Under the pieces are notes generated by a model. It was not told the origin of the DNA, ran no database searches, and worked only from the letters and a program-made list of their open reading frames with translations. A DNA stretch of 57,234 nt, the filler included, from Sphacelaria rigidula (lineage: Eukaryota), in the NCBI GenBank assembly GCA_964200075.2. It is 8 parts of 8 records of this genome, joined end to end, with 100 filler letters (N's around TTAATTAATTAA, not from the genome) between each part and the next. Parts side by side here need not be neighbours in the genome. Positions count along the whole stretch, not along the records: positions 1 to 7,067 come from CAXNAA020016655.1; 7 more parts are not named here. The stretch is one strand, 5' to 3'. Each line of letters opens with the position of its first letter. The first letter of the stretch is position 1. Below are positions 1 through 50,168 of this stretch, piece after piece. Position numbers and translations under genes: made by a program.

Positions 1-789
1 AGCAATAACGCTCAAATCAGTCGCGTCGCGCAGCACTAAACCAGCTTTAACGGCAGTTATGATCATCGCCTCCGTGCACGTTTTTGGCCGGTTTTGGGGG
101 GGGGCTATCTCGGCAGCAGTCTACTTACCGTTTCGTTGCGGAAGAGCCGGAAAATTCCCTTTTTTGGATCAAAAACGGTCAATAACACCCTCCTAATAAA
201 CGGGGTATCTAGTCCGTATCGCCCCAAGAACACTATCATGGGCACTTCAGTTTGAGTGCGGCCTACGCTTTCCCCCTATATCTACCGGTGCTAGCACTTT
301 CAAGTAGTGGTGAAGAATAGTACTCGAGAAAAACTCAAAAACTACAATAACCACGAATTCTGAAAAATTCTGATGCTGACTACTATATACCAAAGAATAT
401 CATCGCCATTCAGAACTTACGCTTCCTGCCTCTTACCCGTTCCTCCGTCCCTATTCTCCTACATAAACCTATCCGTAATAGGCCCAGCCCGGGAGTCCCG
501 CTCTTGCAGCAAAAGCAGTCGCGGCTTATTCATCAGAATCTCGCCTGCTCGAGAACGGTCTGAGGGTTACCTTTACCTGGTATCCGTGGCTTCCCAGTTA
601 AAATCTCCCCCCCACCAGGGTCTTGGTCTAACTTCTGCTCTGCCTCTTGAAGCAACAAACGAGTTACGGCCACTCCTCAAGCCTCTGGTGACTCTGCTTC
701 GTCACGAGGCCACATCTCAGAGAGTGTGCTCAAATCCTCATCTTCACCCTGGCTGAGTCAGGCTAAACAAACCTTCCGCTTCCACTTGA

Positions 790-1620
790 TAAAACCGCCT
801 TCATCCTCCGCGGGTGAACGAAATTTAGCCACATTCTTTGGCATGCCGTCGTTATTTACCGTGGGTGGTGACTCGTAACAGTCGAGAGTAGTCGTAACTT
901 TCACTAGATCGACTCTTTCCAGCCCGACTGCTTCTTCCTATCCACCTGCGTCTGCCCTATGGGGTTTGAACTCCTCGCGCCTTGGTTTCCCTTTCGTCAG
1001 CCGGGAACGAGATAAGCCGGGCATCGGATCCTCGAAAGCGTGAATCGCCTTGCCCTGTCTTGTCGACACCAGACAAATAAGTACCTGTCCGCCCTGATCG
1101 CTGAGCAAACGTGGGGCAGGCAACGGTGTACGCTTCCACTCGCTACTTCCACGCTCGCAGTTGTCTTTCCCTCCGACGATCAGTTTTCAAGGCGATCACA
1201 TAGATCTGTCTCTTGCGATACGGTACGCCCACCTGCACGGCTAAGACAGAGGCCTGCTTAGTGAGACACCCAGCTCCGCTTAACAACGGAGCAACGAGCT
1301 CCTTCCAACCAGGAGAGCTCATCATTACAGCAGTACTGTCCAAGATCAGCGTTGTCACAGGGGTTGATGAGAAGGATGACTCGACAAACATCTTTGGTGA
1401 CACCGGCTAATTCCGACACCAGTGCAACCCGATCGATTGGTGCAACCCGACTTGTATCCCATACCAACACTTCTGGTTGCACTTCTCCCGCGAGGTTGTG
1501 GAAGGAACGGCGCCCCGGACTCGTACGTACCAGCCTGACTCAATTTCCAATCTGCTTCACTCGAACACGATCCAACGCCCTTCAGTCCGCATTAGCGAAT
1601 CCCCTCCACGAACTCTTTGG
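790..1620 (-). pseudogene. Degenerate C5 cytosine DNA methyltransferase-like domain within Gypsy pol
   Basis: ORF 1143-1403: PVTTLILDSTAVMMSSPGWKELVAPLLSGAGCLTKQASVLAVQVGVPYRKRQIYVIALK resembles motifs VI-VIII (P..FxxENV...GY...LxAxxxGVPQxRxRxF). Upstream RGGDSL (motif I-like) and PEVLVW (motif IV position); downstream IHAFEDPMPGLSR and motif IX/X-like segments. Confidence 0.65.
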
Positions 1621-1649
1621 CTGCCAAAACACTTTTTTCACCACCAACT

Positions 1650-1860
1650 GCAAAAAAGCCACTCGCTCAATCAAGACTCGTTAAGTACTTGGATCCTGCT
1701 AGTCCACTATACATGGTCTGCATATCCCTCATGCCGCTGCTGTATGACTCCAGAAGTTCGTTCCGTCCACGATATTCTTGACGTAGTCGTAAACTACCGT
1801 CCGTCCTTCTTTCGGACCGTGATGCAGGCGGCTGCCCATGCTGGCGTCGATCGAACGTAG
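1650..1860 (-). pseudogene. Gypsy reverse transcriptase N-terminal fragment
   Basis: Manual translation with one frameshift: YVRSTPAWAAACITVRKKDG/SLRLRQEYRGRNELLESYSSGMRDMQTMYSGLAGSKYLTSLD*ASGFF. The YxDD region and RNase H are missing. Confidence 0.85.
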
Positions 1861-1873
1861 CCCGGGACAGGCT

Positions 1874-2084
1874 TGTGATGCGTGAGGGGACCGTGTGCTT
1901 GGAGGACCACGCTGTAGTTCACATCACCTCAGGATCGACGTTTTTCAAAACCAGTCGGGCCAGTCTCTACAAGTACCACGCCCCTCACCATAATTCTAAC
2001 ACTAACCCTAACCCTAGCCCTAGCCATAGGGATTCTGAAATTCCGATGCGGTCCTCTAAGCACGCGGTCCTCTCACGCAGTACA
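1874..2084. mobile_element. ~210-bp MITE (TGT...ACA termini, ~37-bp TIR, internal CCCTAA-like repeats), inserted in Gypsy pol
   Basis: tgtgatgcgtgaggggaccgtgtgcttggaggacc ... ggtcctctaagcacgcggtcctctcacgcagtaca; same family at 6044, 6858 and 43648. Confidence 0.9.
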
Positions 2085-2589
2085 AAACTTGCCAGTGAAA
2101 CCTTCTAACCTTACATTCTCCATTAGATGCAGCAGCCATTGAAGCATAGCATCGTCCTTTCACGCCACTCCGAGGATTTTCCACACCTCATTCCATGCTG
2201 CCAGTTCGCTCCCACCAGAAAACATCCCCGTCTAGTCGTCACTGGGCGCGCTTGGCTTGACAGCACAGAAAAGGTCCCACGCTGCCGAATTTCCTTGGAT
2301 GTTGGGGTGGTCGACGATGTCAAACAGCTCCGAGTTTCGGAGAACCGTTAGACACGAACCATACCCACGGAGCATCCGGCGAACGCCAAAATCGTGCTCG
2401 CCCTTTGAAAGATAGAGTATTCTTGATTTTCCTGAAGAAACTCGCTTCCGAAATAAATTCATAGGGCAATCCATCGACCACCTAAACACATAGCTTCGTT
2501 ACCCTATACTCTGGGTGGAGACGAATCGAAATTACCGCTGACTCTAGGATCTTCATCGTGGGTATCCTACTGTTATTAGGTTTAGCAGC

Positions 2590-2838
2590 CTTCATAAACC
2601 CTGTTCCTTGCCGTTGTAACTTATTTGCTACATTACCTCACGTCACTAACGACTTCCACGAGAGCTTTGATGCGTGGCTCCTCCCCACTGCCCCGATGTC
2701 CAGTAATACCGTTACTGGTAGGTGGTGGCTACTCTCATTGTGGTGCCAGACTCGGGCTCGTATCCACAGCTGCTGCGCATCGTTCTTTGCTCCAGCCCAA
2801 TAGGCGTTCAATTCCCTACGATGGTGCCCACATCCCAC
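2590..2838 (-). pseudogene. Retroviral-type aspartic protease remnant
   Basis: ORF 2638-2838 LPVTVLLDIGAVGRSHAS resembles the LLDTGA catalytic motif and lies between gag and RT. Confidence 0.65.
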
Positions 2839-3476
2839 TGTTCCGGTGTTGACAATTTTTCAAAACTCGATCCCTGGTGGGATACAGCTTGTGTCGTAGT
2901 AGGTTGGACCAGCGTTGATCGAACACAACTCCTCGGTGCAGGGCTGCATTATGGCAGCGTGCTAAGCAACTTGCTCGTCCCCACTTGCGTAGCAGGGGTG
3001 GCTCCGGACGGGTGAAATGGCCCATTCGATGAATTTGCATGCGTTCCCACTGGGTTAGGTGGAACCTAGTACCCTGGTAGTTGCGCCTTGCCTGGGATGG
3101 ACAGTGCTAACGGAGAGCCAGATACTGGAAGCATCCGCTGAAAAAACGAAGGAACAACCGGTTGTGAAAACTGTTGGTCAGAAGCAATAAGCAGATTTAT
3201 CTGCGGCGCTTGAGAGGCGCTTTGTGGCAATTGCGCAAAAAGACTGCTGCTCTTGTCGCGGCGCAGAAAAACTGTTGTAGTTGCGGACGCGCAAGAGACT
3301 GATGTTGCTGAGGAGGTGCGACAACCTGATGCTTCACGGAAAGGTGCGGCAACCTGCTGCTGAATGGGAAGGTGCTTGCACGGGAGGCTGTTGGACGAAT
3401 GCCGCCGGGTAAAAGGACTGGGCTTGAGGGTTCAAGGGGGTTCCACTCATTTTTCACCGATTTGGGGTTAGCTCTG

Positions 3477-3772
3477 TGATACTCAGCACGATAAATCTGC
3501 TCGCACGTACCTCATGAACGTATCGCAAAATTGAAAAAACTACGAATGATTCATGGCAATGTACTGCAGTCTCCATGATTCAAGAGGGCGGTGTGTGGTG
3601 GGAACATTCCCAACCATCAACGGCGTGGGAGACGATGTAACAAGCAATACGGATAACAGCGCCCCACCAACATAAAATGATGGCGGAGAAAAGAGAGGGA
3701 AAGGAGAACGAAGGTCACAGCGATATGACCGGAGAAGACAGGTTCACGCGTGTGCATTTGGCCAGGGTATCA
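3477..3772 (-). repeat. 5' LTR of the contig-1 Gypsy element
   Basis: 296 bp bounded by the terminal inverted repeat TGATAC...GTATCA, directly upstream of the gag region. Confidence 0.7.
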
Positions 3773-4329
3773 CGTGTCAGGGACATCCAAGGATAATTTC
3801 CTGGACTCCGACCCCTGTAAACCTGATCGGACACGCATAGAAAATCCTGGCCCCCTGTCAACGTGCTCGGACACGCATGAGAACTCTGGCTCCCTGTCCT
3901 GTTCGGACAAGCATGGTCTTGACATATTGAGCTCTCGTTCTCACCCATTTTCCTGCATGCGATGATTTCCTGCTTGTTTGCTGTATGGTGCACGCATATT
4001 TCTGGTCCATACAACTTTTTCTTTCATCTACCCAATGTCTGACTTCTATGCTAGTAACTTACATAGTATCCACAATAATCACACGAGTCGTTCATTACAA
4101 GCCAACAACCCTCGTCGGTTTCTTTCCGGTGTGAATCTCGGAAAAAGAATGCGTGGAACCCATGGACTCTCAAGACCCGAACAGTGTAGCCCTGTCCCGA
4201 TGACGGTCATAGCACGCACGGATAAGCGGTCAACATTGGATTGGTTGTCGGAGCGCGCACAGTAGACGGTCAACGGGAGCTGACGGATCACCCGTCTGAC
4301 AACCTCGTGTAGACCTCTTGGCTTGCAGT

Positions 4330-4500
4330 TTCCTTCGTAGCCGCCCAATCGTTGTGGACTTAACCGTTAGACCGCGAGATTTGTCTTGCTGGATCATGCA
4401 TACTTCATTTCACTTGAAATTGATGCCGATTCAACAGAAGACTAACCTCGCGGTCTAGGGGTTAAGTTGATTATCCCATTCATGGGTGGCTACAGGGGAA
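4330..4500. repeat. Imperfect palindrome, MITE-like
   Basis: gtagccgccca...cttaaccgttagaccgcgag pairs with ctcgcggtctaggggttaag...tgggtggctac. Confidence 0.55.
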
Positions 4501-6043
4501 TTGGTAGACGGTCCCTTTTTTTTCAATTATCAACGGCTGACGCTGGCTTCCTGCAGCCCAGTGGTCGTTGATCCACTGCTGCAGGTCATATGAATCAAAT
4601 TATGATACACTCAGCAGTGTACATGACAACGATCACCCATGTATTAATAGTTTTGAAATAACTACGAGTACATGGTTGAGTTTGATTTCGTCACAATCGG
4701 AGCAAAGGTCACATAGCCCCGAAGTTTTTCGAGCAAGCATGGCTCGTCCATGTCCTTTTGGCTATCCATCCGGGTGCAAACGGTCAAACGGGGGGAACCA
4801 CGTGGGGTTACATCCATTTTTTTACGACAATGAAACATTTCAGGCATCAATGATCTGCTCCCCCCCTGATCGGGGTAGGGTAAATACCTCACACTGCGTT
4901 CATTCAAACCTCGAAATTTCCGTTCACGGCAAATCGGCTCACGTGGTGATTTGCCCTGCTGTAGTATGTATGTTCAACCAGTATGACTTCACGGTTACAT
5001 CAACCGTTTCGCGTATTAGTGGACAGCAGATTGTCGCTGATATTCACTCTCAGCTGCATACACGGTCATGCATGAGATACGGTAGTAGGTGGCTCCCATC
5101 TCCAAACGCATGCGTTATCCACTTTGCCATGAATTTAGCAGATAACACGTCGGAAGTTCCCCGTTTTATCCCTCTTTGATATGTGATAGCAATTCATTAG
5201 AATCACGCCTGCCTTTCCGATGCTGCGGCCATAGTTTCCCTCAGGTTACGCGACCATCACTACAATATGTGTCCACACAGTATATATACTCGAACTGATA
5301 GGACACGACAGAGGTGACCTCGGAATTTTCCGCATGCACAGCCACTGTGATGCTTGTTTCAACCAAGCGTTACTGCAAATTCACGTGGGGACAGCATAGC
5401 ATTGCAGGGAGGGATACAACAAAGCGGTATACAGAATAATGGCTTCCTAGTATCAACCGTTTGCACATGTCGAGTCAACCCAGCTAAAAGTTTCGACTCT
5501 AACTAGTATCAAGTTGGATTGTACTGTGGCGTCAAGCACGGTAGGGTGTTGCGTTTTTCACGCAGGAACAGGAGGTGCAACAGCAACTAACTGCGGCTTG
5601 GTACATGAAGCACACACAGCGATGTCTCATCCCACGACTAGTTCATAGCTCACAGCAGCAGTTGCGTGAGTTGTGAACAAGTCCAGGGTTGCTTCATCCG
5701 ACGCATCGGTACCTACATTGCACTTTCTAGTAATCGTATGTTGGCTTGGTTTCGCACCCCACATATGGCTAGGTCGCCAATAAGCCCGTGCGGAACAATT
5801 GTCCCGCACAGACGAGCATCGGTGTAACTCGTGTGTAATGCAGATCGAATAACGTTACTGAGCAGTAGTACAGTGCAACACAGTGTACTCACTTGATTAT
5901 CGTGTCTCGACTCGGTTTCGCTATACACAGGTGCAAACAGTACAACACAGCACAACTTTTTAAGACTTACGGGTCAACTTGGCTTCGCAACGCGCAGGAA
6001 ATTTTCGGCCTATTTCATACTGCAATATGTTAGAACGTGAGGG

Positions 6044-6255
6044 TGTAACGCGTGAGACGACCGCGTGCTTAGAGAACCGCGCCGTAGTCCAAAACACCTC
6101 AGGATCGTTGTTTTTCGAAACCAATACGGCCAGTCCCTGCAGGTACCACGCCCCTGACTACAACCCTAACACTAACCCTGACCCTAACCCCTAACCATAG
6201 GGATGTTCAAATTCCGATGCGGCCCTCTAAGCACGCGGTCCTCTCACGCATTACA
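6044..6255. mobile_element. ~210-bp TGT...ACA MITE with CCCTAA-like repeats
   Basis: Full TIRs; AGGG on both flanks (possible 4-bp TSD). Confidence 0.9.
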
Positions 6256-6599
6256 AGGGGATAGCTGGTAGCATTGACGTAGCACCGGCACGTTGCATCA
6301 GGTTACGGGAAGATGGGTATCAACTTGTATTGTAACGCGGGATGCAACATACCAGACAGCCTCCCTTCACGCAACCAGTCCAAGAGCCATACACAGACGG
6401 TATGTCGAAACAGTCTAGGTGACAGAATACCCTCGATATGGTCGGAGCACCGAAAGATCGAGTAAATAGGGCTCAACTCGTCTGTAATTTCGGTCCCATC
6501 CATCTTTTGATACATGTACCCATTTCTGAGATGCTACTGTCGTACTTCGTTATCGGTGCCCGAACTAAAAGCAAGTCATTCGCACTGTGCCTAAATACA

Positions 6600-6856: not shown

Positions 6857-6857
6857 T

Positions 6858-7067
6858 TGTAATGCGTGAGAGGACCGCGTGCTTAGAAAAACCGCGTTGT
6901 AGTTCAAAACACCGTAGGATCGATATTTCTTAAAACCAATCGGGCCAATCCCTGCAGGTACCACGCCCCTGACCATAACCCCAGCACTAACCCTAATCCT
7001 AACCCCAATCATGGGGATGTTCAAATTCCGATGCGGTCCCCTAATCACGCGGTCCTCTCACGCATTA
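6858..7067. mobile_element. ~210-bp TGT...ACA MITE cut by the contig end
   Basis: tgtaatgcgtgagaggaccgcgtgcttag ... cacgcggtcctctcacgcatta. Confidence 0.9.
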
Positions 7068-7167
7068 NNNNNNNNNNNNNNNNNNNNNNNNNNNNNNNNN
7101 NNNNNNNNNNNTTAATTAATTAANNNNNNNNNNNNNNNNNNNNNNNNNNNNNNNNNNNNNNNNNNNN
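7068..7167. other. Artificial contig spacer
   Basis: N44-TTAATTAATTAA-N44 (six-frame stop linker). Confidence 0.98.
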
Positions 7168-7184: not shown

Positions 7185-8069
7185 TCAGGCCGGTTTTGGC
7201 CTCAAAAGTGCAGACCCTATCGCAGCATCACTCATTGAATAATCATACTGCCCGAGTACAGCCTTCCATTGTTCAAGACTCTGTGCGGCAGTTTTCGCCA
7301 GTGTGGTCACACATGCTTCGGGATCAAAAATGTAAGCGAGATTGCGATGGTCCGTAAATATGGTCACTCCTCCCCACAAAAGGTACTCCAACCTACGAAA
7401 CGTACTCACAATGGCATATCCTTCCTTGTCCACCGTAGCCCACCGCAACTGCGCTCCTCGAAACGTCCCACTAAGAAATCCCAGGGGCTCGTGACTCATG
7501 TCCTCCACCGCTATATTGCGGTCCAATTCAGCTCTCGGTACCTGGGTCACGAAACTACCCCAATGAAGATCCGATGCGTCTGGAAATATCATCACCTCAT
7601 AGCCCTCCTTGGGATGTGACAGAGCAACAGCATGCGCCACCAAATCTTTCGCCGCTGTCCGAGCTTGCGCACGCTCAAACATCCACGCCGCCTCCTTGAT
7701 TGTCCTGTTGGGAGCAACCCGCTTTGTACGACGCACGTTGCCCACCATATGCTCCTCGAGCAAAAAACGAAGGGGCTCCACCACTTCAGCAAGGCGCGGA
7801 AAAGACGTCCGCAGCCAATTCATCGCTTGCAAAAATTGTATCAACTCGCTCGCGGTTTGAGGACGCCTCATATTCGCCAAATCGCTCAGCCGCTCCCTGT
7901 CGTGAGCCACCTGTCCACCCGAGAGAACCTTTCCGCACCACGTAATTTGCGTATCATAAAACATACACTTGTGTGCAGCCGCAAAAAAACCAGCATCCTC
8001 GAGGCGGCTTAAAATCGCATTCAGCGTGCACAGCAAGTCATCGTCATTTGCCCCCCACCAAGATGTCAT
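7185..8069 (-). pseudogene. Gypsy RT C-terminus / RNase H
   Basis: AAHKC...ITWCGK; IFPDASD, LGFLSG...WATVDKEGYAI, IFTDHRNL. Homology stops near QYDY (~7232). Confidence 0.93.
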
Positions 8070-8871
8070 CTACCCACACCTTACATGGAAGTCCAGTCAA
8101 TAGCTTCGTCATAGTCCCCTGAAAATACCCCGTAGCGTTGAGTACTCCTTGAGGCACGCGCGTAGGCGTAAATAACCCGTCAGGGGTTGCAATAGTGACG
8201 ATTTCTTGGGCATCTGCCGCCAACGGCATCTGCCAGTATCCCTGCAGCATGTCTAGCTTTTCAAAACAAGCAGCCCCTAGCAAATCCGCCATCTCCGCTT
8301 CTTGGTTTGGCATCACAGTCGGCACTTTCTCAATCTGCTTACTAACGGCACGGTAATCACTCACCAGTTTGAAACCACCCTTTTTAGGCGTTGCAACAGC
8401 CGCGCTCGCCCATACTGCCAGGAAACTGCGATACACGAGCCCGAGCGCCACCGATGTCACCATGCAACGTGCCAACCATGCCATCTTAACTGGAGAGTAT
8501 GCTCGCGGCCTAGCCTTAACTGCCGTAGCACCAGGTTTGAATGTCACCTTGAGAGGCTCGACACGAGCGGGCGGATCACCACGTAGCGCTCGCCGAAAAG
8601 CATTCGCACGGCGGTTTACAAGCTCGCGAAGCTTGCCCACGCCGCTCTCGGACATACCATTATTGGCAGCTGCTAGTACCGCCTCCTCCAGCGCGACCTT
8701 ACGCTCAGCCAGCTCTTGTTCGGGGGTCATACTCATCTCCGGACCGCGCGACACCAGCCGCTCGACTGAGGGATCCACGGGCTCCTCCCGATCACCTTGG
8801 TGCTGCAGAGCCTCAACCGCGATGTTGATATGTCGACAATCCTTGAATTCAGGCGTGTCTACAACACGCAC
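8044..8871 (-). pseudogene. Gypsy reverse transcriptase
   Basis: KARPRAYSP, LVSDYRAVSK, LDMLQGYWQMPL, PTRVPQG, WVDD catalytic motif; frameshift to the next ORF. Confidence 0.95.
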
Positions 8872-8910
8872 CGAAGTGTTTCTCGCCGGCGCACAGGCAC
8901 CTAAACTACT

Positions 8911-9252
8911 TTACACGTCGATACCAAGCTCCTCTAGAATAGGGCTCCCCCTGATAATGACATCATCGGTACCCGGCATGGCCGCATAGGAGCATGGGTC
9001 CAATACAACCGGACCCCAACTGGTGTGCAAAGCGGTGCGGACAGGGCAAGTTTTCTGCTTCACGCGCTCAACATTGTCATTTGTCAATTTCACCAACTGT
9101 TCACCAGCCATTGGTCTCACCACTTGGGCATCTGGAACCATGGCTTGCAATTTCGCCGCCACACCAGCTGACATGGTCGTAAGTCCAGATCCTGAATCTA
9201 AAATAGCCGTGACCGGACAAACACCCTTTTCCCCTGTACTCGGGACAGACAA
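8911..9252 (-). pseudogene. Gypsy aspartic protease
   Basis: TAILDSGSGLTTMS ... DDVIIRGSPILEELGI. Confidence 0.9.
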
Positions 9253-9264
9253 GTCGGCAAGACA

Positions 9265-10330
9265 CTACCTTTCCTTGTGATCTACTTGCAGACCCTCAGA
9301 TTGAAAACCTGACACCTCACCCGCTTTGAGCGATCTCCATGCTGGCACCGCCTTAGATTTCGAACCCGGGAACGAGCGCGATGAGATGGTCTGCTGCACG
9401 CCACCAGTAGAAGCGACCGGTTCTGGTGGCAACGTCGCCCCCCCGCTGGGAGCACTTTGTCCATCGGCTGAAAATACAGCCCTTGTAGGAGCGGGACTCG
9501 TGCCCCCTCCGCGAGGCACCTGTGCAGGGCCCTGCGACAGCTGCTGTTGTTGCTGCTGCTTGTCGCCAACCTTCGTCTGCTCACCGTCACTACGTTGTGT
9601 AGCACCAGCCTGGCCTTGCTGCTTGCAATCCTTCCGAAAATGGCCCTTGTTTCCACATATGAAACATCATGCATTATTTGGGCCTGGTTTGCGGGTTTTC
9701 CCGAAACTGGCAGTCCCATTTCCACTGCTCGCCGTTTTTCCACCATTTGGTTGGCGCTTGCTTCCGGAAGTCCCGCTAATACTCCTTTGTTTCAGCTGCG
9801 GCTGCTGACGGCGCTGCTTATCCGCCGCTTCCACCGTCTTCCATGCCTCCGCTGCTTCCCGAGCCGTGTTAAACACAAGCCCAGGGTCCTCCTTCCACCC
9901 CCCCTTCATGTTCAACATGTTGAGGACTTTAGTTTTGAATTCGGGGGGGGGTCAGCCCATTCAACATTTCCCGAGTTATGATTTGAGCGGGTCCTGGTTT
10001 GAAATCTGCATCATCGCGGAACGCACGCTCAGCGCTAGTATTCTCCGCAAAAAAGTCCTCCAGGGCACCCCACTGCCCTTCTACTCTTCCCATTGCAGTT
10101 TGCTCGTTGCGGGCAGCCAACGCTTTCCGCACACCAGCAGCAGCAACTGAAGGATCAATCTCTTCATCCTGCCAACATTTCGCGTGTCGGCCTAGTGCCT
10201 CCTTGAGATCGTCTTCGTCAAGCACGGATCCGTCAAAAATCGCGCGTGACAAACACGCACGGATGTGCTTCGGCACCAGTTCAGTAACAGTCAGTAAGAC
10301 GGCCTGCATGCTACGTCCTTTGTTGTTCAT
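9265..10330 (-). pseudogene. Gypsy gag with CX2CX4HX4C knuckle
   Basis: Frameshift near the G-run at ~9945, stop just before CFICGNKGHFRKDC; similar to the gag at 25819-26633. Confidence 0.85.
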
Positions 10331-11045: not shown

Positions 11046-11493
11046 CCTAACCCTAGGATGAGCGAGGCCATACATCACAGCCGGATGATCCAGTCGGTTT
11101 TTTTATTTCGAAAATATGCATTGCTGTCGGAGATCCCCAACGTTCACCCCGAATAACACAGTCTAGCCGCAGTTTTTGCGGTGAAAAACATTTACGACAT
11201 AGGTTACACGCGTTCTCGGTGCTCTGTCGCGACAACTCATCCCTACGTGTGCCATACGTGCGTACTGCCTGCGTTGGTACCAAACACATCGCGGGGATTT
11301 GGGTCTGTCGTCCAATTGGCAACTCCGTAAGACTTCCCCAGGCACAGAACTTTTGTAAACCTTTACTCGGTGTTCAGGCACAGACTGGTCCGCCGCGAGG
11401 TGTTGTGTTGCGTGTGGTGTGCGGTTGTGCGGTGTTGCTCCCCGGTTGTGCGATACCGATCTTCAATTTCGACGCACACTTCTTTGAACACAC

Positions 11494-11679
11494 CTCGAGA
11501 AGACCTGGTCGATCATGATGTGGGTATGTCCAACCATCATGGAGTTGACCTCCACCCGTCCGATTACGCCCCGAGCAACCAGAGAACCCAGGTACGTTAA
11601 GACGATATGGTTCTTGTTCTCCCCCACACAGTTGTCGAATTGGGGGTACAGTTCGTCGATGTACGCTAGGGTGCCGTCG
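11494..11679 (-). CDS. Exon of a Sola/DUF7869-like DDD transposase
   Basis: DGTLAYIDELYPQFDNCVGENKNHIVLTYLGSLVARGVIGRVEVNSMMVGHTHIMIDQVFSR (DNC.xENKN and VGHTH.xIDQ.FS motifs), bounded by cag| and |gtgtgt splice sites. Confidence 0.75.
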
Positions 11680-12869
11680 CTGCAGTGCGTGTCGAACAGT
11701 CGCGTCCGAGCCCGGTGAATGGAGGTGCATACAAGATTGCTATCTGCGAAATAAGTACACGGCAGAGTGGTGGGGGGTTGGCGGGACGGACAGTGTGCGA
11801 TGTTCGTTTGGTTTGTGGAAGAGATGCTGTGGTGGACTGTGGTGCAGCACCCGTGGACAGATAGCACCCTGTGGGGCGCACTGTGCAGGGTCCGCACAGG
11901 GTCCTCCACAGTCTTTGTGGAAAAACCCTGACAGTGAAAAGCCAAATCTGTACCCCTCGTAGCGTTATGATACGGTTTTCCCCAGGGTTGGATTTGCAGC
12001 CCTATGTAGGCACGTCGGCAAAGCCCTGCACAGTCCTGTGGTAGTGTTTTGGTAAAAAAAAACCCTGCCTTTTTTTCCAATTCCAAATATTTTGGTACAA
12101 AATCTGCATATTTACATATTTTCAATGAACAGCTTGCCCTCCTGCCCGAGGTAAATTCCTCTTTACCCGTTTGAATCGAGCGAAAAGGAATTTATTTTGG
12201 ACAGCAGGACAAGCTATTCAAAACAGATCCTTTTTCCGCCCGATTTATTTCGGCAAAAAAGAGGATTTATTTCGAACAGCTTCTTCTGCTGCGCAAATCC
12301 CATGCACACTGGCAGATTCGGAATTTTGAACAGCAGAAGAAGCTCGAAATAAATATCTACTTTTCCCTCCAATTCATCCAGAGATTGGGGGAAAAGAGAT
12401 TCATTGCGAGCAGCGTCAGCTGCTGGGCAAATCCCGCATACTGCATCGTCACCAGCGCATGGGATCCGACACGCAGAAAAAGTTGCTGAAAGGTATTCAT
12501 CCTTTTGCCTCCCAGTCCGTATGTACATGGGCTGAAGGGTGAATAGCTCTCAACAGCTTTCGCTGAATAGAGATCCCACACGTTGGATACGTGTGTATGT
12601 CCACACCCGTGTTTCGTCTGAAACCCTTGGGAAGGCGTGGAGAGATGCTAAACGGTAGGATATACCTCGTCTATGTATCCACATTTGTCACAAAACCCCG
12701 TATTGCATCGTCTACCAACACGAACCATGTTTAGAAATATCACGTAATCAATCGTATATCAATAGCATAGGTAGACCATCATCACCCCAAGATATATCTA
12801 TACTCCGTATATATATCACCGCACACAAATCGAACACCAATGAATGCACCCGCCCGCACAACAGTATTG

Positions 12870-14234: not shown

Positions 14235-14334
14235 NNNNNNNNNNNNNNNNNNNNNNNNNNNNNNNNNNNNNNNNNNNNTTAATTAATTAANNNNNNNNNN
14301 NNNNNNNNNNNNNNNNNNNNNNNNNNNNNNNNNN
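14235..14334. other. Artificial contig spacer
   Basis: N44-TTAATTAATTAA-N44. Confidence 0.98.
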
Positions 14335-21401: not shown

Positions 21402-21501
21402 NNNNNNNNNNNNNNNNNNNNNNNNNNNNNNNNNNNNNNNNNNNNTTAATTAATTAANNNNNNNNNNNNNNNNNNNNNNNNNNNNNNNNNNNNNNNNNNN
21501 N
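21402..21501. other. Artificial contig spacer
   Basis: N44-TTAATTAATTAA-N44. Confidence 0.98.
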
Positions 21502-28568: not shown

Positions 28569-28668
28569 NNNNNNNNNNNNNNNNNNNNNNNNNNNNNNNN
28601 NNNNNNNNNNNNTTAATTAATTAANNNNNNNNNNNNNNNNNNNNNNNNNNNNNNNNNNNNNNNNNNNN
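28569..28668. other. Artificial contig spacer
   Basis: N44-TTAATTAATTAA-N44. Confidence 0.98.
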
Positions 28669-35735: not shown

Positions 35736-35835
35736 NNNNNNNNNNNNNNNNNNNNNNNNNNNNNNNNNNNNNNNNNNNNTTAATTAATTAANNNNNNNNN
35801 NNNNNNNNNNNNNNNNNNNNNNNNNNNNNNNNNNN
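35736..35835. other. Artificial contig spacer
   Basis: N44-TTAATTAATTAA-N44. Confidence 0.98.
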
Positions 35836-38147: not shown

Positions 38148-39330
38148 TCAGGCGCGAGGCATTGATAGCGTGTTGTTCGCGCACGAGGGTGAACGCTTTG
38201 CGTTGCCGTTCATGTGCGAGCATGATATCTGATCCTGATCCAATCCTTGGTGGCCGTCGAACGTGTGTCGCTCGAACACGGTGATAGGCAGCCAAGAGTA
38301 GCGTCCAAGATGGAGTTCGTTCGGAGAAAGGCCTGTGGCGACATTAACCGAGTTGTTGTAGGACAACATGATGTGCGAGAGATGTAGGTCCCAGTCATTT
38401 TGGCGGTCATTGACAACCATAGAGAGCATCTGGGCCATAGTGTGATTAACTCTTTCGGTACCACCGTTACCGTTCGGGTGGTAGGTGCTCGTGGAAATTT
38501 TGCGGATGCCCAGGAGCTTGTAAAGCTCATCCGAGATGTCTGTACAAAATTGCTGATCATTGTCTGAAAGTAGTCGCTTCGGGCAGCCGTAGTGCTTAAT
38601 GTAATCGTGGACCAGTATGTCGGCCGTTCCTGCGGCAGTGAAATCTGCGGCGGTTACCGCGTACATGGACGCATGGCGGCTAAAGCGGTCAGTGAAGAGT
38701 AAGATATAGGTGTTGCCGCGACCTGCGGTCGGGAGAGGGCCGAAGTAGTCAGAGGACACAAGGTGGCCGGGCTCATCGGGGAGTCCCATAGAGATGACGG
38801 GCCAGCGTACTATCTCTCGTGAAGGTTTTCGGGCTTGGCATTTAAAGCATCGCCGAATCCAGAAGCGGGTTGAAATTTCCATGCCAACCCACCAGTAGAA
38901 GCGTTCCAAGAGCGCGAGGGTGCGGGTGACGCCAAGCTGGCATGACAAGTCTGTATGGCAGCCTTTCATGACCCAGGGGCGCATTAATAATGGCACATAT
39001 ATGCACGTTGGTTCGTCATTGAGTAATCGAGCGGTGCGTCCCGTAGTTGAGGCGGCAATTGCGCCTGTCAAGGGCGTGGGCCGACGTACGAGTAGTTGCA
39101 CGTCTTCATCCGTAGTAAAAAGGGTGCCTTTACGCACGAGTTCGTATACGTCAGAAATAACTGGCGGTGGCAGTGTCCCAACCGGGGCCAGAAGTGTGGA
39201 CGGAAAAGGGGCTGGACAGTCAAGCTGTAAGTACCGGATGGCTGCGCGACATAGCGGTTCTGCGTTTTGTTCACGAGCCCAATCACGGTGGGAGTAGCTG
39301 GCGAGAAACTCGCGTAGTTGGCCTTCCGCT
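38148..39330 (-). pseudogene. Gypsy integrase
   Basis: CH...LGVTRT...YWW...CFKCQ, SDYFGPLP, LLSDNDQQF, TERVNHT within ORF 38148-39827. Confidence 0.95.
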
Positions 39331-39897
39331 GGCGAGCCGCCCAAACATGGTAGGGCAGGCGGCGGGGGGACAGGCGGCGGGGCAGAAATGCCGACGTCAA
39401 TATCTGTCTCGGGAGCAGGAGACGAGGCGTCAGTTCCGTGCTCGGGGGCAGAAGATGTTTGCGGCGCCGCCATTGGCGGCGGGGTTGTTTCAGTGCGCGG
39501 CGAAGGTTGTCCGCGGCGCGTGGCGCACGGTGCAGAAGTTTCGCGGAGCTTTGCGTTTTGGTCCGCGGAACTTGTGTCGGGTGGCTCGTAGAGGTTGCAG
39601 GTGTTGTCGGTGGCGGCGAGGCACTCGGTGTGGTGCGGGCCGCAGACAGGCAGCGCGTGTTGTCGGAGATAAGATGGGTGACTGGGGGTGTCCCTGCGAA
39701 GAGCTTCGCGCGTGTACCGAAAGTGCGAAAATCGACAAAATCGGAGGTAGTGGGCTTTAACCCACCCGAGACGGCGCCATATGGTAAAGGGCGAGGTCCT
39801 CCCATATGCACACCTGTTTCCGGGCACTGGAGGTCGAGGGCGTAAACGGGCGTTGAAAAACGTCTGATCGGGTAAATTCCAGGTTCATCGGGTCCCG

Positions 39898-41250
39898 TTA
39901 AACGGCAAGCCGGGCTGGAATCTGCGGCCGTAGGCGGCAGAGGTAGGCGGGAAAAAAGATCCGCGTTCCCGCTGGTTTTACCTGGACGGTGCTTAATGGT
40001 ATACTGGTACGCTGTTGGAAATTCCAACCATCGTTGTATACGAGGGTTGTGTTTACCAACCTTGGCGAGTTGTTCAAGTGCTCCGTGATCCGTATAGAGA
40101 TCTCGAAGGGCACGTGAAATGGAGATTGTCGGAGGCGCTTGATGGCCCAAGTGATTACTCCGCCTTCCAGTTCTAGCGGGCTCCGATTGGCCTCGTTGGG
40201 CAGGGTAGCGCGGCTGATATAAAGGATGGATCGGACAGAGCCATCAACCTGAGGTTGATTGAAAACTCCTCCAAAACCATTTGTGCTGGCGTCAGTATGG
40301 AGTTGGAAAACGCGGGAGCCATCTTGTACTGCCTCCCAATCAGGAAAGCAAAGTACGGGCTTTTCGGTAAGCGTCTTGAGTAGTTCGCGGGTGATAGTCT
40401 CCATTCCTGTGGTGAAAGAAAACACGGCTCCTTTCTTAAGTAGCTCAGTAAGGGGGCGAATCCGTTTCGATAAATTCGACAAAAAATTGCGGTAGTAGGA
40501 TAGCCCACCCAACAATGAGCGAAGTTGAGAAATGTTAGTTGTCATCGGCGAATCAGTCATCGCCTTGACTTTGTTTGTATCCGGATGCAGGCCTGCTGGC
40601 GAAATGGAATGCCCCAAGAAATCCAAGTCAGTTGCGCCAAGGCGAGCTTCGGATGGAGACAGTTTCAAATCGCGCGTACGTAGGCGAGAGATACATTATC
40701 GTAGAGTGCGTATATGTGCAATAGGTGAGGCATCGAAAGCGATCGCGTCATCCAGGTACATGATGATGTGCTCGAGGCCCTCGGTAACGCGTTGCATTAA
40801 GCGCTGAAAGCATCCCGGGGCAGTGGCGGCGCCTCGTGGCATGCGAAGCCACTCATAGAGTCCGGACGAGGTGCAGAAAGCCGTCAGTGGGACTGTGTCA
40901 GGGTGTATAGCATTCTGAAAAAATCCAGACGCGAGGTCGAAGGTGCTGAATATTTTGCCTTCTCCTAAGGAGTCGAAGACTTCATCAATGCGGGGAATCG
41001 GAAGTTTACCGACGACAGTGACGCGGTTCAACCGTTGATAGTTCACGGTGATGCGTATGTTTCCATCCTTTTTGGGGACGAACACAAGGGGCGAGACCCA
41101 AGGAGAGGAGGAATGTTGGATTAGTCCCGCTCCCAAATATGCATCCAAGATGGCGTTAACTTTCTTGGTAAGGATTGGGTTGGTACGGTATGGCCGAGAA
41201 GAAATCGGCGAGACACCGGGTTGGGGGGTAACCTCAAAAGTGTTTTGCAA
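39898..41250 (-). pseudogene. Gypsy RT and RNase H
   Basis: SRPYR, SPWVSP, FDLASGFFQ, MPRG, YLDD; FLGH; LHTDAS; ORFs 40696-41250 and 39898-40668. Confidence 0.95.
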
Positions 41251-41962
41251 TGCCCAAGATCCGTCTTGGATCGGGAATATCGGTCTTGGTACTGTAGCAG
41301 GACACCACTGAGTTCTTGGATGACTGCCGGTTCCCAGCCGGACCCATGAAGGTCAAACTGGATGTCCCGCATGTGTGGCGGCAGTTGGTACCACATGTGC
41401 AAGAAGCTATTCCGAGAATCTGGTGATAAGCGTTGAAGCACTTCAGCAGGAGGATCGGAATTTGACTGGCCAGGATCCGCGGTGTGGACCTACGGTGGAG
41501 TAGCAGAGGCGACATCGAAATATGGTTCATCGACACAATGTACTGACTCCGCCGGAGATGTGGTGTTTGGTGCGGCAGGCTCTGTGACGCACGTCTCGAT
41601 TGGGATGTGCATCAGGGGAGCAGCGGTGATTCCTAAAACATCGCCGGGTTCCAAGTTAGCATGGCCCGTAAGAGGGAGGAGTTGTTGTCCCGCCGACACA
41701 AAATATTCTGTGTCGGCTGGTGCGCCAATACGGGGTAACATTTCGGCAAGATAATGGCCCGTAAGTGCTGGCATGCCATTTCGGCGAACTAGTGCAACTT
41801 CAAGAAGTTAGGGGTCGTCGGAGAGTGTGATACCCACACTACCGTTAGATCGTAGGTGGTAAGCAGCTCCGGTTGCTTGAGGATTCTTCTGATAAGCCAG
41901 GGTGCCGTGGAGAGTACCGAAGTGCTCGAGGTTGAATTTTCCACGCGGCGGGGAATGTGGCG

Positions 41963-42902: not shown

Positions 42903-43002
42903 NNNNNNNNNNNNNNNNNNNNNNNNNNNNNNNNNNNNNNNNNNNNTTAATTAATTAANNNNNNNNNNNNNNNNNNNNNNNNNNNNNNNNNNNNNNNNNN
43001 NN
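42903..43002. other. Artificial contig spacer
   Basis: N44-TTAATTAATTAA-N44. Confidence 0.98.
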
Positions 43003-43647: not shown

Positions 43648-43858
43648 TGTAATGAGTGAGAAGACCGCGTGCTCAGGGGACCGCGCCGTAGTTCAAAACA
43701 CCGCAGGATCGATGTTTTTCAAAACCAATCGGGCCAGTCCCTGCAGGTACCACACCCCTGACCATAACTCCGAAACTGACCCTAACCCCAACCCTAACCA
43801 TAGGGATGTTCGAATTCCGATGCGGTCCTCTGAGCACGCAGTCCTCTCATGCATTAAA
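43648..43858. mobile_element. ~210-bp TGT...ACA MITE with CCCTAA-like repeats
   Basis: Full TIRs; CCCAG on both flanks (possible 5-bp TSD). Confidence 0.9.
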
Positions 43859-50068: not shown

Positions 50069-50168
50069 NNNNNNNNNNNNNNNNNNNNNNNNNNNNNNNN
50101 NNNNNNNNNNNNTTAATTAATTAANNNNNNNNNNNNNNNNNNNNNNNNNNNNNNNNNNNNNNNNNNNN
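50069..50168. other. Artificial contig spacer
   Basis: N44-TTAATTAATTAA-N44. Confidence 0.98.

Follow-up and report, generated by a model that had tools for sequence, protein, structure and literature searches.

A decayed Gypsy element in Sphacelaria rigidula

The DNA studied here is a stretch of 57,234 nucleotides from Sphacelaria rigidula (assembly GCA_964200075.2), which as a whole we call the window, and its main subject is a minus-strand element that runs from 387 to about 2826. We are fairly confident that this element is dead and arose by deletion from a member of a Ty3/Gypsy retrotransposon lineage whose Pol polyprotein carries an extra domain with the fold of cytosine-C5 methyltransferases (C5-MTases). 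An initial annotation had reported colinear methyltransferase (MTase)-like segments on the minus strand at 790..1620; they are real and in place, and the domain is slightly longer, spanning 757-1645 in a colinear, frameshifted arrangement. In the list below, the family profile is that of the protein family to which the domain belongs, and the read-through is a translation in which five pieces were joined, with an X at each of the four frameshifts and at each stop. From the N-terminal to the C-terminal side of Pol, the parts of the element are:

2335..2826, minus strand: N-terminal region of Pol, protease-like by eye (tblastn with the Ectocarpus Pol P0032, residues 394-571, frame -1, 29% identity, E 5.9e-14)
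1873..2085, unstranded: short high-copy repeat of ~210 bp, an unrelated insert between the protease-like region and the reverse transcriptase (self-blastn)
1655..1810, minus strand: N-terminal fragment of the reverse transcriptase (RT), frame -3 (tblastn)
1646..1654, minus strand: deletion junction where RT (~Pol residue 439) is fused directly to MTase-like motif I (jump in Pol coordinates)
1604..1645, minus strand: MTase-like domain, remnant of motif I (Gly-Gly and the next helix), frame -3 (the read-through alignment starts at profile position 31, at the Gly-Gly)
1411..1602, minus strand: MTase-like domain, motifs II to IV, frame -1 (family profile 68-105, E 2.4e-4; tblastn)
1053..1406, minus strand: MTase-like domain, motifs VI to VIII and the next helix, frame -2 (family profile 117-197, E 6.8e-23)
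863..1051, minus strand: MTase-like domain, small lobe (for target recognition) with the part resembling motif IX, frame -3 (E 1.3e-10 for family profile 217-264, E 0.01 for 267-298)
757..861, minus strand: MTase-like domain, helix resembling motif X, read in frame -1 beyond a shift of one base at 862 (the read-through reaches profile position 326)
387..539, minus strand: pre-integrase segment, the 'DDILWY' linker (weak colinear tblastn matches)

The domain stands out clearly from the rest of the window. When all 2,646 six-frame stop-to-stop pieces of at least 10 amino acids (aa) were compared with the family profile, exactly four were picked, all of them in this region and ordered as in the profile:

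1261-1539, frame -1: profile 68-105, E 2.4e-4
1146-1406, frame -2: profile 117-197, E 6.8e-23
941-1186, frame -3: profile 217-264, E 1.3e-10
761-937, frame -3: profile 267-298, E 0.01

The next-best piece elsewhere in the window reaches E 3.4 in the same scan. The read-through matches positions 31-326 of the 377 in the profile with 205 bits; the motif I remnant (1604..1645) is by itself too short to be scored. With 24 relatives as tblastn queries the matches are confined to 842-1608 on the minus strand, e.g. residues 19-70 of P0017 at 1602-1447 (E 3.5e-4) and 25-80 of P0013 at 1608-1441 for motifs II to IV, and residues 147-213 of P0012 at 1051-851 for the small lobe. An exhaustive phmmer search of 1.84 billion protein representatives with the 87 aa encoded at 1143-1406 (minus strand) yielded 11 proteins with E of at most 1e-3, led by one at 4.5e-20 with 60% identity, and a profile search added 13 further members. 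Among these proteins, P0002 (226 aa) holds in a single frame what the window spreads over three, P0013 comprises the complete domain and P0015 starts within the last part of an RNase H domain. No relative was found in the metagenome contigs scanned with P0012. The likeness of the window segment to this family is above chance.

Six of the seven motif segments named in the initial annotation lie in the homologous frame and place, namely those for motifs IV, VI and VII-VIII, the IHAFEDPMPGLSR piece, and the IX-like and X-like segments. The seventh, RGGDSL...EADWK, had been taken for motifs I-II and is out of frame; in alignments with the relatives, motif II falls in frame -1 (~1593-1561) and the Gly-Gly of motif I in frame -3 (1645-1640). 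The Gypsy RT fragment described directly upstream was confirmed, with P0026 residues 389-439 at 1807-1655 (E 4.7e-5) and P0029 residues 414-465 at 1810-1655 (E 1.2e-5); the Pol residues matched are the start of Pfam RVT_1. From there the Pol coordinates jump, in P0026 from ~439 to ~904-912, which corresponds to a deletion of ~470 aa comprising the rest of RT, RNase H and a linker. An exact-match contig of another public run (X4) covers 1512-1813 at a depth of 14.7, and thus the deletion junction is not solely an error of this assembly.

Towards the C-terminal side, the 'DDILWY' linker does occupy the place of the pre-integrase segment of three intact Pols, but its matches to the stretch just before Integrase_H2C2 are weak (P0026 E 0.15, P0028 E 0.29 and P0033 E 1.9, tblastn in a search space of 900 bases). 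Homology to Pol stops at 387, and no tblastn match to an integrase was obtained within 1-5000 at E 1e-3 or better. The interval 733-813, which three Pols match at E 0.28-1.5, was considered as the start of an integrase and rejected, as its place would not fit the order of Pol and these residues align with motif X. On the opposite side, the aspartic-protease-like motif in 2335..2826 was noticed by eye only; the protease/gag-side pieces matched no protease family, nor anything else, in Pfam. A self-blastn of 1-4000 against the whole window, in which long terminal repeats (LTRs) would appear, returned only the ~210 bp repeat; the LTRs may lie outside the window or have been lost, the element being truncated at 387 and near the window's edge.

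The ~210 bp repeat is present in four copies (1873-2085, 6044-6256, 6857-7067 and 43648-43856) of 82-84% identity by self-blastn. Inside it lies a degenerate CCCTAA run that resembles telomeric sequence. Its summed contig depth in public runs exceeds that of every other part of the stretch by a wide margin, and many of its joints are inverted (opposite-strand). Because of this very high depth and the many opposite-strand joints, it looks like a foldback element or one of the miniature inverted-repeat transposable element (MITE) type.

The copy in the window is dead and unable to make protein. It has four frameshifts (several had been predicted to be needed for its reconstruction), six in-frame stops (1582-1584, 1540-1542, 1143-1145, 938-940, 856-858 and 763-765, the first of which sits where relatives carry Trp), the ~470 aa deletion and no integrase. 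Contigs of public runs, aligned at 90% likeness, contain many diverged relatives of the domain region, and at positions 1145, 1338, 1461 and 862 nearly all of this related contig depth differs from the window. Base 862 is absent from most of it (188.6 of 287.6 in run X1; 396 of 439.7 in X4), and the majority bases at the other three positions, read as codons, give Gln for the stop (1145; 20 X1 contigs carry this base), Glu for an Asp in motif VI (1338) and Gly for a Trp in motif IV (1461). Thus the motif VI Asp, the motif IV Trp and the stop at 1143-1145 are private to this copy. For the Ser codon at 1450-1452 no variant is found among those listed (52 more exist), which is not proof of a majority Ser. 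Two further runs, guessed to be RNA, contain exact pieces at a depth of ~3, which is indistinguishable from DNA carry-over, and were not used as evidence.

The domain in intact Pol relatives

Since the window copy is broken, the place of the domain in the element is best seen in intact proteins. With P0015 as query we found ten longer proteins of 881-2,024 aa; with the alignment of relatives in place of P0015, the search for longer proteins returned none. The intact Ty3/Gypsy Pol relatives measure 1,450-2,024 aa, and one relative (P0032) is named by NCBI as a protein of Ectocarpus sp. CCAP 1310/34, which fits the earlier guess of a brown-algal type of Gypsy. The intact Pols have, within one open reading frame (ORF), the order RVT_1, RNase H, MTase-like domain, and Integrase_H2C2 with rve, and so the proposed position inside Gypsy pol upstream of the integrase holds. 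In P0026, for example, Pfam and blastp place RT at 388-547, RNase H at 620-750, the domain at ~904-1200 and the integrase at 1458-1623. According to Pfam, RVT_1, RT_RNaseH, Integrase_H2C2 and rve follow each other in this order in P0026, P0028, P0029 and P0033. Between RNase H and integrase the Pols have a gap of 420-700 residues without Pfam assignment, and it is here that blastp puts the domain. It comes after RNase H in seven of the eight Pols that went through both Pfam and blastp (in P0032 the protein breaks off inside the domain), and before the integrase in all four of those seven that have integrase families.

Intact members without the segment between RNase H and integrase had been named as what would speak against the annotation. 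Seven of the eight mapped Pols have the segment. In P0033 (1401 aa), where RT, RNase H and integrase are kept, most of the domain is gone and the linker runs into the part with motifs IX-X (~631-690). Across six Pols, the mean pairwise identity of the domain (51%) is close to that of rve (55%) and RT (59%); that of the linker which follows the domain is 21%. At the extreme C-terminus of four of the eight Pols (P0027, P0028, P0029 and P0031) there is a match to PTM_DIR17_Tudor, in each case below threshold (18-22.6 bits, cut-off 27.2). An intact Pol of this lineage comprises a protease-like region, RT, RNase H, a domain of ~300 aa, the integrase and a C-terminal tail.

Fold, catalytic residues and possible roles

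C5-MTases consist of a Rossmann-type catalytic lobe and a small target-recognition lobe, their C-terminal motif X helix packing back onto the S-adenosylmethionine site, and carry their conserved motifs in the order I, II, IV, VI, VIII, IX and X. The initial annotation had assigned the segment to this class; the predicted structure of the relative P0013 bears the assignment out, with only cytosine-C5 MTases at high Z and both lobes covered, whereas comparisons with PF00145 and by hhalign are non-significant. The structure in question is the second of two AlphaFold2 models, computed from 29 sequences after the intact Pols had been added (mean predicted local distance difference test score, pLDDT, 77.7; ~90 for the domain, with residues 1-300 mostly at 84-97; predicted template modelling score 0.72). 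In a Foldseek search of the PDB all 46 matches listed are proteins of the C5-MTase fold, with E from 9.7e-13 to 2e-8 over ~350 columns and a target template modelling (TM) score of 0.55-0.67 for single-domain enzymes; they include a C5-carboxymethyltransferase, DNMT2, M.HhaI, M.HaeIII, MET1, DIM2, DNMT1 and M.MpeI. VIA-align against 48,161 chains put C5-MTases in all of the ranks 1-19 (Z 22.7-13.8, 242-276 of ~306 residues aligned), followed at rank 20 by FtsJ with Z 11.4 and then by other generic Rossmann MTases. In the ESM Atlas, all 30 matches were PF00145 clusters for each of two family members. In the model, the domain thus has the whole two-lobed C5-MTase fold, beyond the Rossmann core, and it is this predicted structure that decides its identity.

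Several results count against this assignment. The model was made for P0013, which is ~30% identical to the window translation, and not for the window itself, and a first AlphaFold2 model from 24 mostly fragmentary sequences had a pLDDT of only 58 and left C5-MTases tied with FtsJ at Z ~9. Pfam gave no PF00145 (DNA_methylase) match on nine window pieces, and of 27 family proteins it reported one (P0010), at 14.6 bits and E 0.022 with a gathering threshold of 22 bits. Searching PDB sequences, phmmer with two window pieces returned none and three irrelevant matches, respectively, and the family profile found no DNA methyltransferase (DNMT) and one irrelevant match. With hhalign, the family scored E 0.67 against E. 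coli Dcm alone, and E 0.1 and 0.062, at a probability below 1%, against a purpose-built alignment of 40 phage and bacterial DNMTs. The alignment at E 0.062 runs over 263 colinear columns from motif I to X and follows the canonical motif order: motifs I, VIII and X each meet their counterparts, and the family's Cys and Glu fall on the canonical ones. A canonical DNMT profile, run against the 2,646 window pieces, did not lift the region above noise, its best pieces lying elsewhere at E 2 or more; as it fails to single out the region, the likeness to textbook DNMT motifs is not above chance on this evidence. The domain is very divergent, and its C5-MTase nature is not demonstrable from sequence alone.

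The residues on which catalysis would depend are partly kept. All seven Pol domains retain the Gly-rich loop of motif I, the acidic residue of motif II, the Cys of motif IV, the Glu of motif VI and two basic residues of motif VIII. The motif IV Cys is the nucleophile of C5-MTases, and enzymes in which it is changed to Ser are inactive. In the window, motif IV reads Thr-Ser, with the Ser codon at 1450-1452 where intact Pols have Cys, and in motif VI an Asp (codon 1338-1340) replaces the Glu of the relatives; the observation that the PC and ENV signatures are not intact here was correct. The Cys position holds Ser or Thr in all four members of the window's sublineage (P0002, P0005, P0008 and the window) and Phe, Ser or Tyr in a further group of fragments; P0012, P0010 and P0015 keep Cys. 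The two explanations offered earlier for these changes, a repurposed or inactive fold and simple decay, each hold in part: the Asp, the Trp and the stop belong to this copy, and the change from Cys to Ser or Thr is common to the four sublineage sequences. We infer that this sublineage has lost the canonical covalent mechanism and that its domain would be at most a binding module or a relic.

For the intact elements that bear the Cys, we propose that the domain would be a working S-adenosylmethionine-dependent cytosine-C5 methyltransferase, produced within Pol beside the integrase, whose target would be the element's own nucleic acid and most likely its new cDNA, as proposed for other transposon-borne DNMTs. 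We favour such an activity tentatively and put it slightly below an even chance; taken for themselves, DNA as the substrate is rather unlikely and RNA more clearly so, and what is left next to a non-catalytic role falls to other functions.

The activity has to be weighed against the remaining signature residues. Motif IV of the intact Pols is Ala-Cys (Cys in 7/7, Pro in 0/7), the motif VI Glu is followed in all seven by Cys, Ala or Thr and then Pro, not by Asn-Val, and the Gln of motif VIII is replaced in all seven. In addition, P0033 suggests that the domain may be lost without breaking the ORF and may be dispensable. The likeliest alternative is that the domain is a non-catalytic pseudoenzyme throughout the family, its DNMT fold serving as a nucleic-acid-binding or targeting module beside the integrase and the Tudor-like tail; we regard this as a serious possibility, if a doubtful one. 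It draws on the fact that the signatures Pro-Cys, Glu-Asn-Val and Gln-x-Arg-x-Arg are all altered in the seven intact Pols, and that, of the ten sequences from outside the Pol clade that reach the Cys position, among them the window with its three closest relatives, nine have another residue and P0012 alone retains the Cys. The sublineage of the window also comprises many diverged copies, as seen from the 20 X1 contigs mentioned above, which fits as well. A known protein that has the fold but has lost catalytic residues, as in the Cys-less sublineage of the window, is DNMT3L, which is inactive. Two of its chains were matched by the first model (Z 7.8 and 7.1); unlike the present domain, it belongs to the host, where it regulates as a partner of DNMT3A/B, and is not carried by a transposon. 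Ectocarpus, the host of one relative, is said to lack cytosine methylation (PMC12477816), which speaks for a pseudoenzyme and against activity alike. However, seven intact Pols that are only 30-60% identical agree without exception in Cys and Glu, in the Gly-rich loop and in the acidic residue of motif II, which is unusual for a pseudoenzyme, and the Cys-less sequences seen are all short fragments, none of them shown to come from an active element.

If the domain is active, it could also be an RNA cytosine-C5 methyltransferase similar to DNMT2, acting on the genomic RNA of the element or on a host tRNA (e.g. the primer) and not on DNA. DNMT2-type enzymes occupy Foldseek ranks 2, 3, 5 and 6, the highest target TM of 0.67 belonging to S. 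pombe Dnmt2, and reach Z 21.8, 21.0 and 20.6 in VIA-align; an RNA substrate would also fit a host without detectable 5-methylcytosine (5mC) in its genome. Yet DNMT2 lies within 2 Z units of bacterial DNA MTases, M.HhaI and DNMT1, so that the structure does not discriminate the substrate, and we consider this version improbable. Finally, a chance likeness to C5-MTases, with the segment being an unrelated linker or domain of Gypsy Pol, would agree with the non-significance of every sequence-only test against canonical DNMTs, but is highly implausible in view of the 19 C5-MTases at Z 22.7-13.8 over 242-276 residues with a gap to 11.4 for generic Rossmann MTases, Foldseek E values down to 1e-12, 30 out of 30 PF00145 clusters in both ESM Atlas searches and a colinear, motif-to-motif hhalign alignment.

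Known systems and other features of the window

DNMTs borne by retrotransposons are known from dinoflagellates, a charophyte, Cymbomonas and Euglena, and all of these came to light through PF00145. Such enzymes methylate CG de novo, and self-methylation of the cDNA has been proposed (PMC5890265). The closest likeness is KnitGypsy-Dnmt3 of Klebsormidium nitens (de Mendoza et al. 2018, PMC5890265), which is also a Ty3/Gypsy element with a cytosine-MTase-fold domain inside Pol. There, PF00145 identifies the domain as a Dnmt3, its key residues are conserved and 5mC is present in the host; the present domain, in contrast, is invisible to PF00145, lacks Pro-Cys and Asn-Val, can be assigned to no DNMT class and has at least one host (Ectocarpus) reported to be without 5mC. 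SymbioDIRS-Dnmt3 and SymbioLINE-Dnmt of Symbiodinium likewise are retrotransposons encoding a DNMT, which in SymbioDIRS lies in the Pol ORF with RT, but they are DIRS (tyrosine recombinase) and LINE elements and not integrase-bearing Gypsy elements, and their DNMTs keep the key residues and were found by PF00145 (PMC5890265). The EpiLTRs of Cymbomonas and Euglena combine, in an LTR element, a DNMT with a chromatin reader, which is a chromodomain there and would be the weak Tudor-like tail here; their DNMTs are sister to DNMT4 and are found either 3'-terminally in pol or alongside a Dam-like adenine MTase (bioRxiv 10.64898/2026.05.21.726589). The main text of that preprint contains no occurrence of Ectocarpus, brown algae or stramenopiles.

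Among brown-algal elements, Gypsy-10_Ec32 of Ectocarpus deserves attention: an unusually long Gypsy element of 11,528 bp with a C-terminal Tudor domain, many deletion derivatives and a homologue in Tribonema (PMC12477816). The weak Tudor-type matches at the C-terminus of four of the eight relatives would fit it, and P0032, which has no Tudor match, is from Ectocarpus. From a comparison by description only, we infer that the present lineage may be the same as Gypsy-10_Ec32. A methyltransferase domain in Gypsy pol is not named in the parts of PMC12477816 covered, where 'methyltransferase' or 'DNMT' occurs 0 times in five supplement files and twice in the main text, for a Sola1 accessory gene and for histone enzymes. 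In the text, figures aside, of the searched literature on transposon-borne DNMTs and on Ectocarpus transposons, the portions covered do not mention the domain.

The published transposon DNMTs keep key residues and/or fall into known DNMT clades (PMC5890265; bioRxiv 10.64898/2026.05.21.726589), and the survey of Symbiodinium and Klebsormidium counted PF00145 domains (PMC5890265). The present case shows that a domain of the DNMT fold can be carried throughout a Gypsy lineage and still escape profile searches, so the number of such captures may be underestimated. As the lineage reaches brown algae, it offers a test of a transposon-borne cytosine MTase in a methylation-free genome, or of what the DNMT fold is used for once methylation is gone, and the natural sublineages with and without the Cys provide a ready comparison. 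A more far-reaching scenario, which we think unlikely but worth stating, is an old stramenopile Gypsy lineage with its own epigenetic kit: a competent, Pfam-invisible C5-MTase next to the integrase and a Tudor-type reader at the C-terminus, which would write 5mC on the element's own cDNA or RNA in brown algae regarded as methylation-free, the change from Cys to Ser or Thr in the many-copy sublineage then marking a switch to a non-catalytic role.

The window contains two further Gypsy elements, both on the minus strand and without an MTase-like domain. The one at 38151-41352 belongs to a different family and has RT, RNase H and integrase, with ~360 Pro-rich, low-complexity residues between RNase H and integrase; the other, at 7185-9666, is a fragment with a CCHC zinc knuckle, RVT_1 and RT_RNaseH that ends at a masked N run. 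Paired N runs of 44 bases recur almost exactly every 7,167 bases (7068-7167, 14235-14334, 21402-21501, 28569-28668, 35736-35835, 42903-43002 and 50069-50168) and look like masking or an artefact of processing rather than biology. Overall, the window consists of eukaryotic DNA that is rich in transposons and contains masked N runs; at 11466-12191 (minus strand) it also holds a 242-aa ORF that matches DUF7869 strongly (E 1.3e-20) and probably belongs to a DNA transposon.

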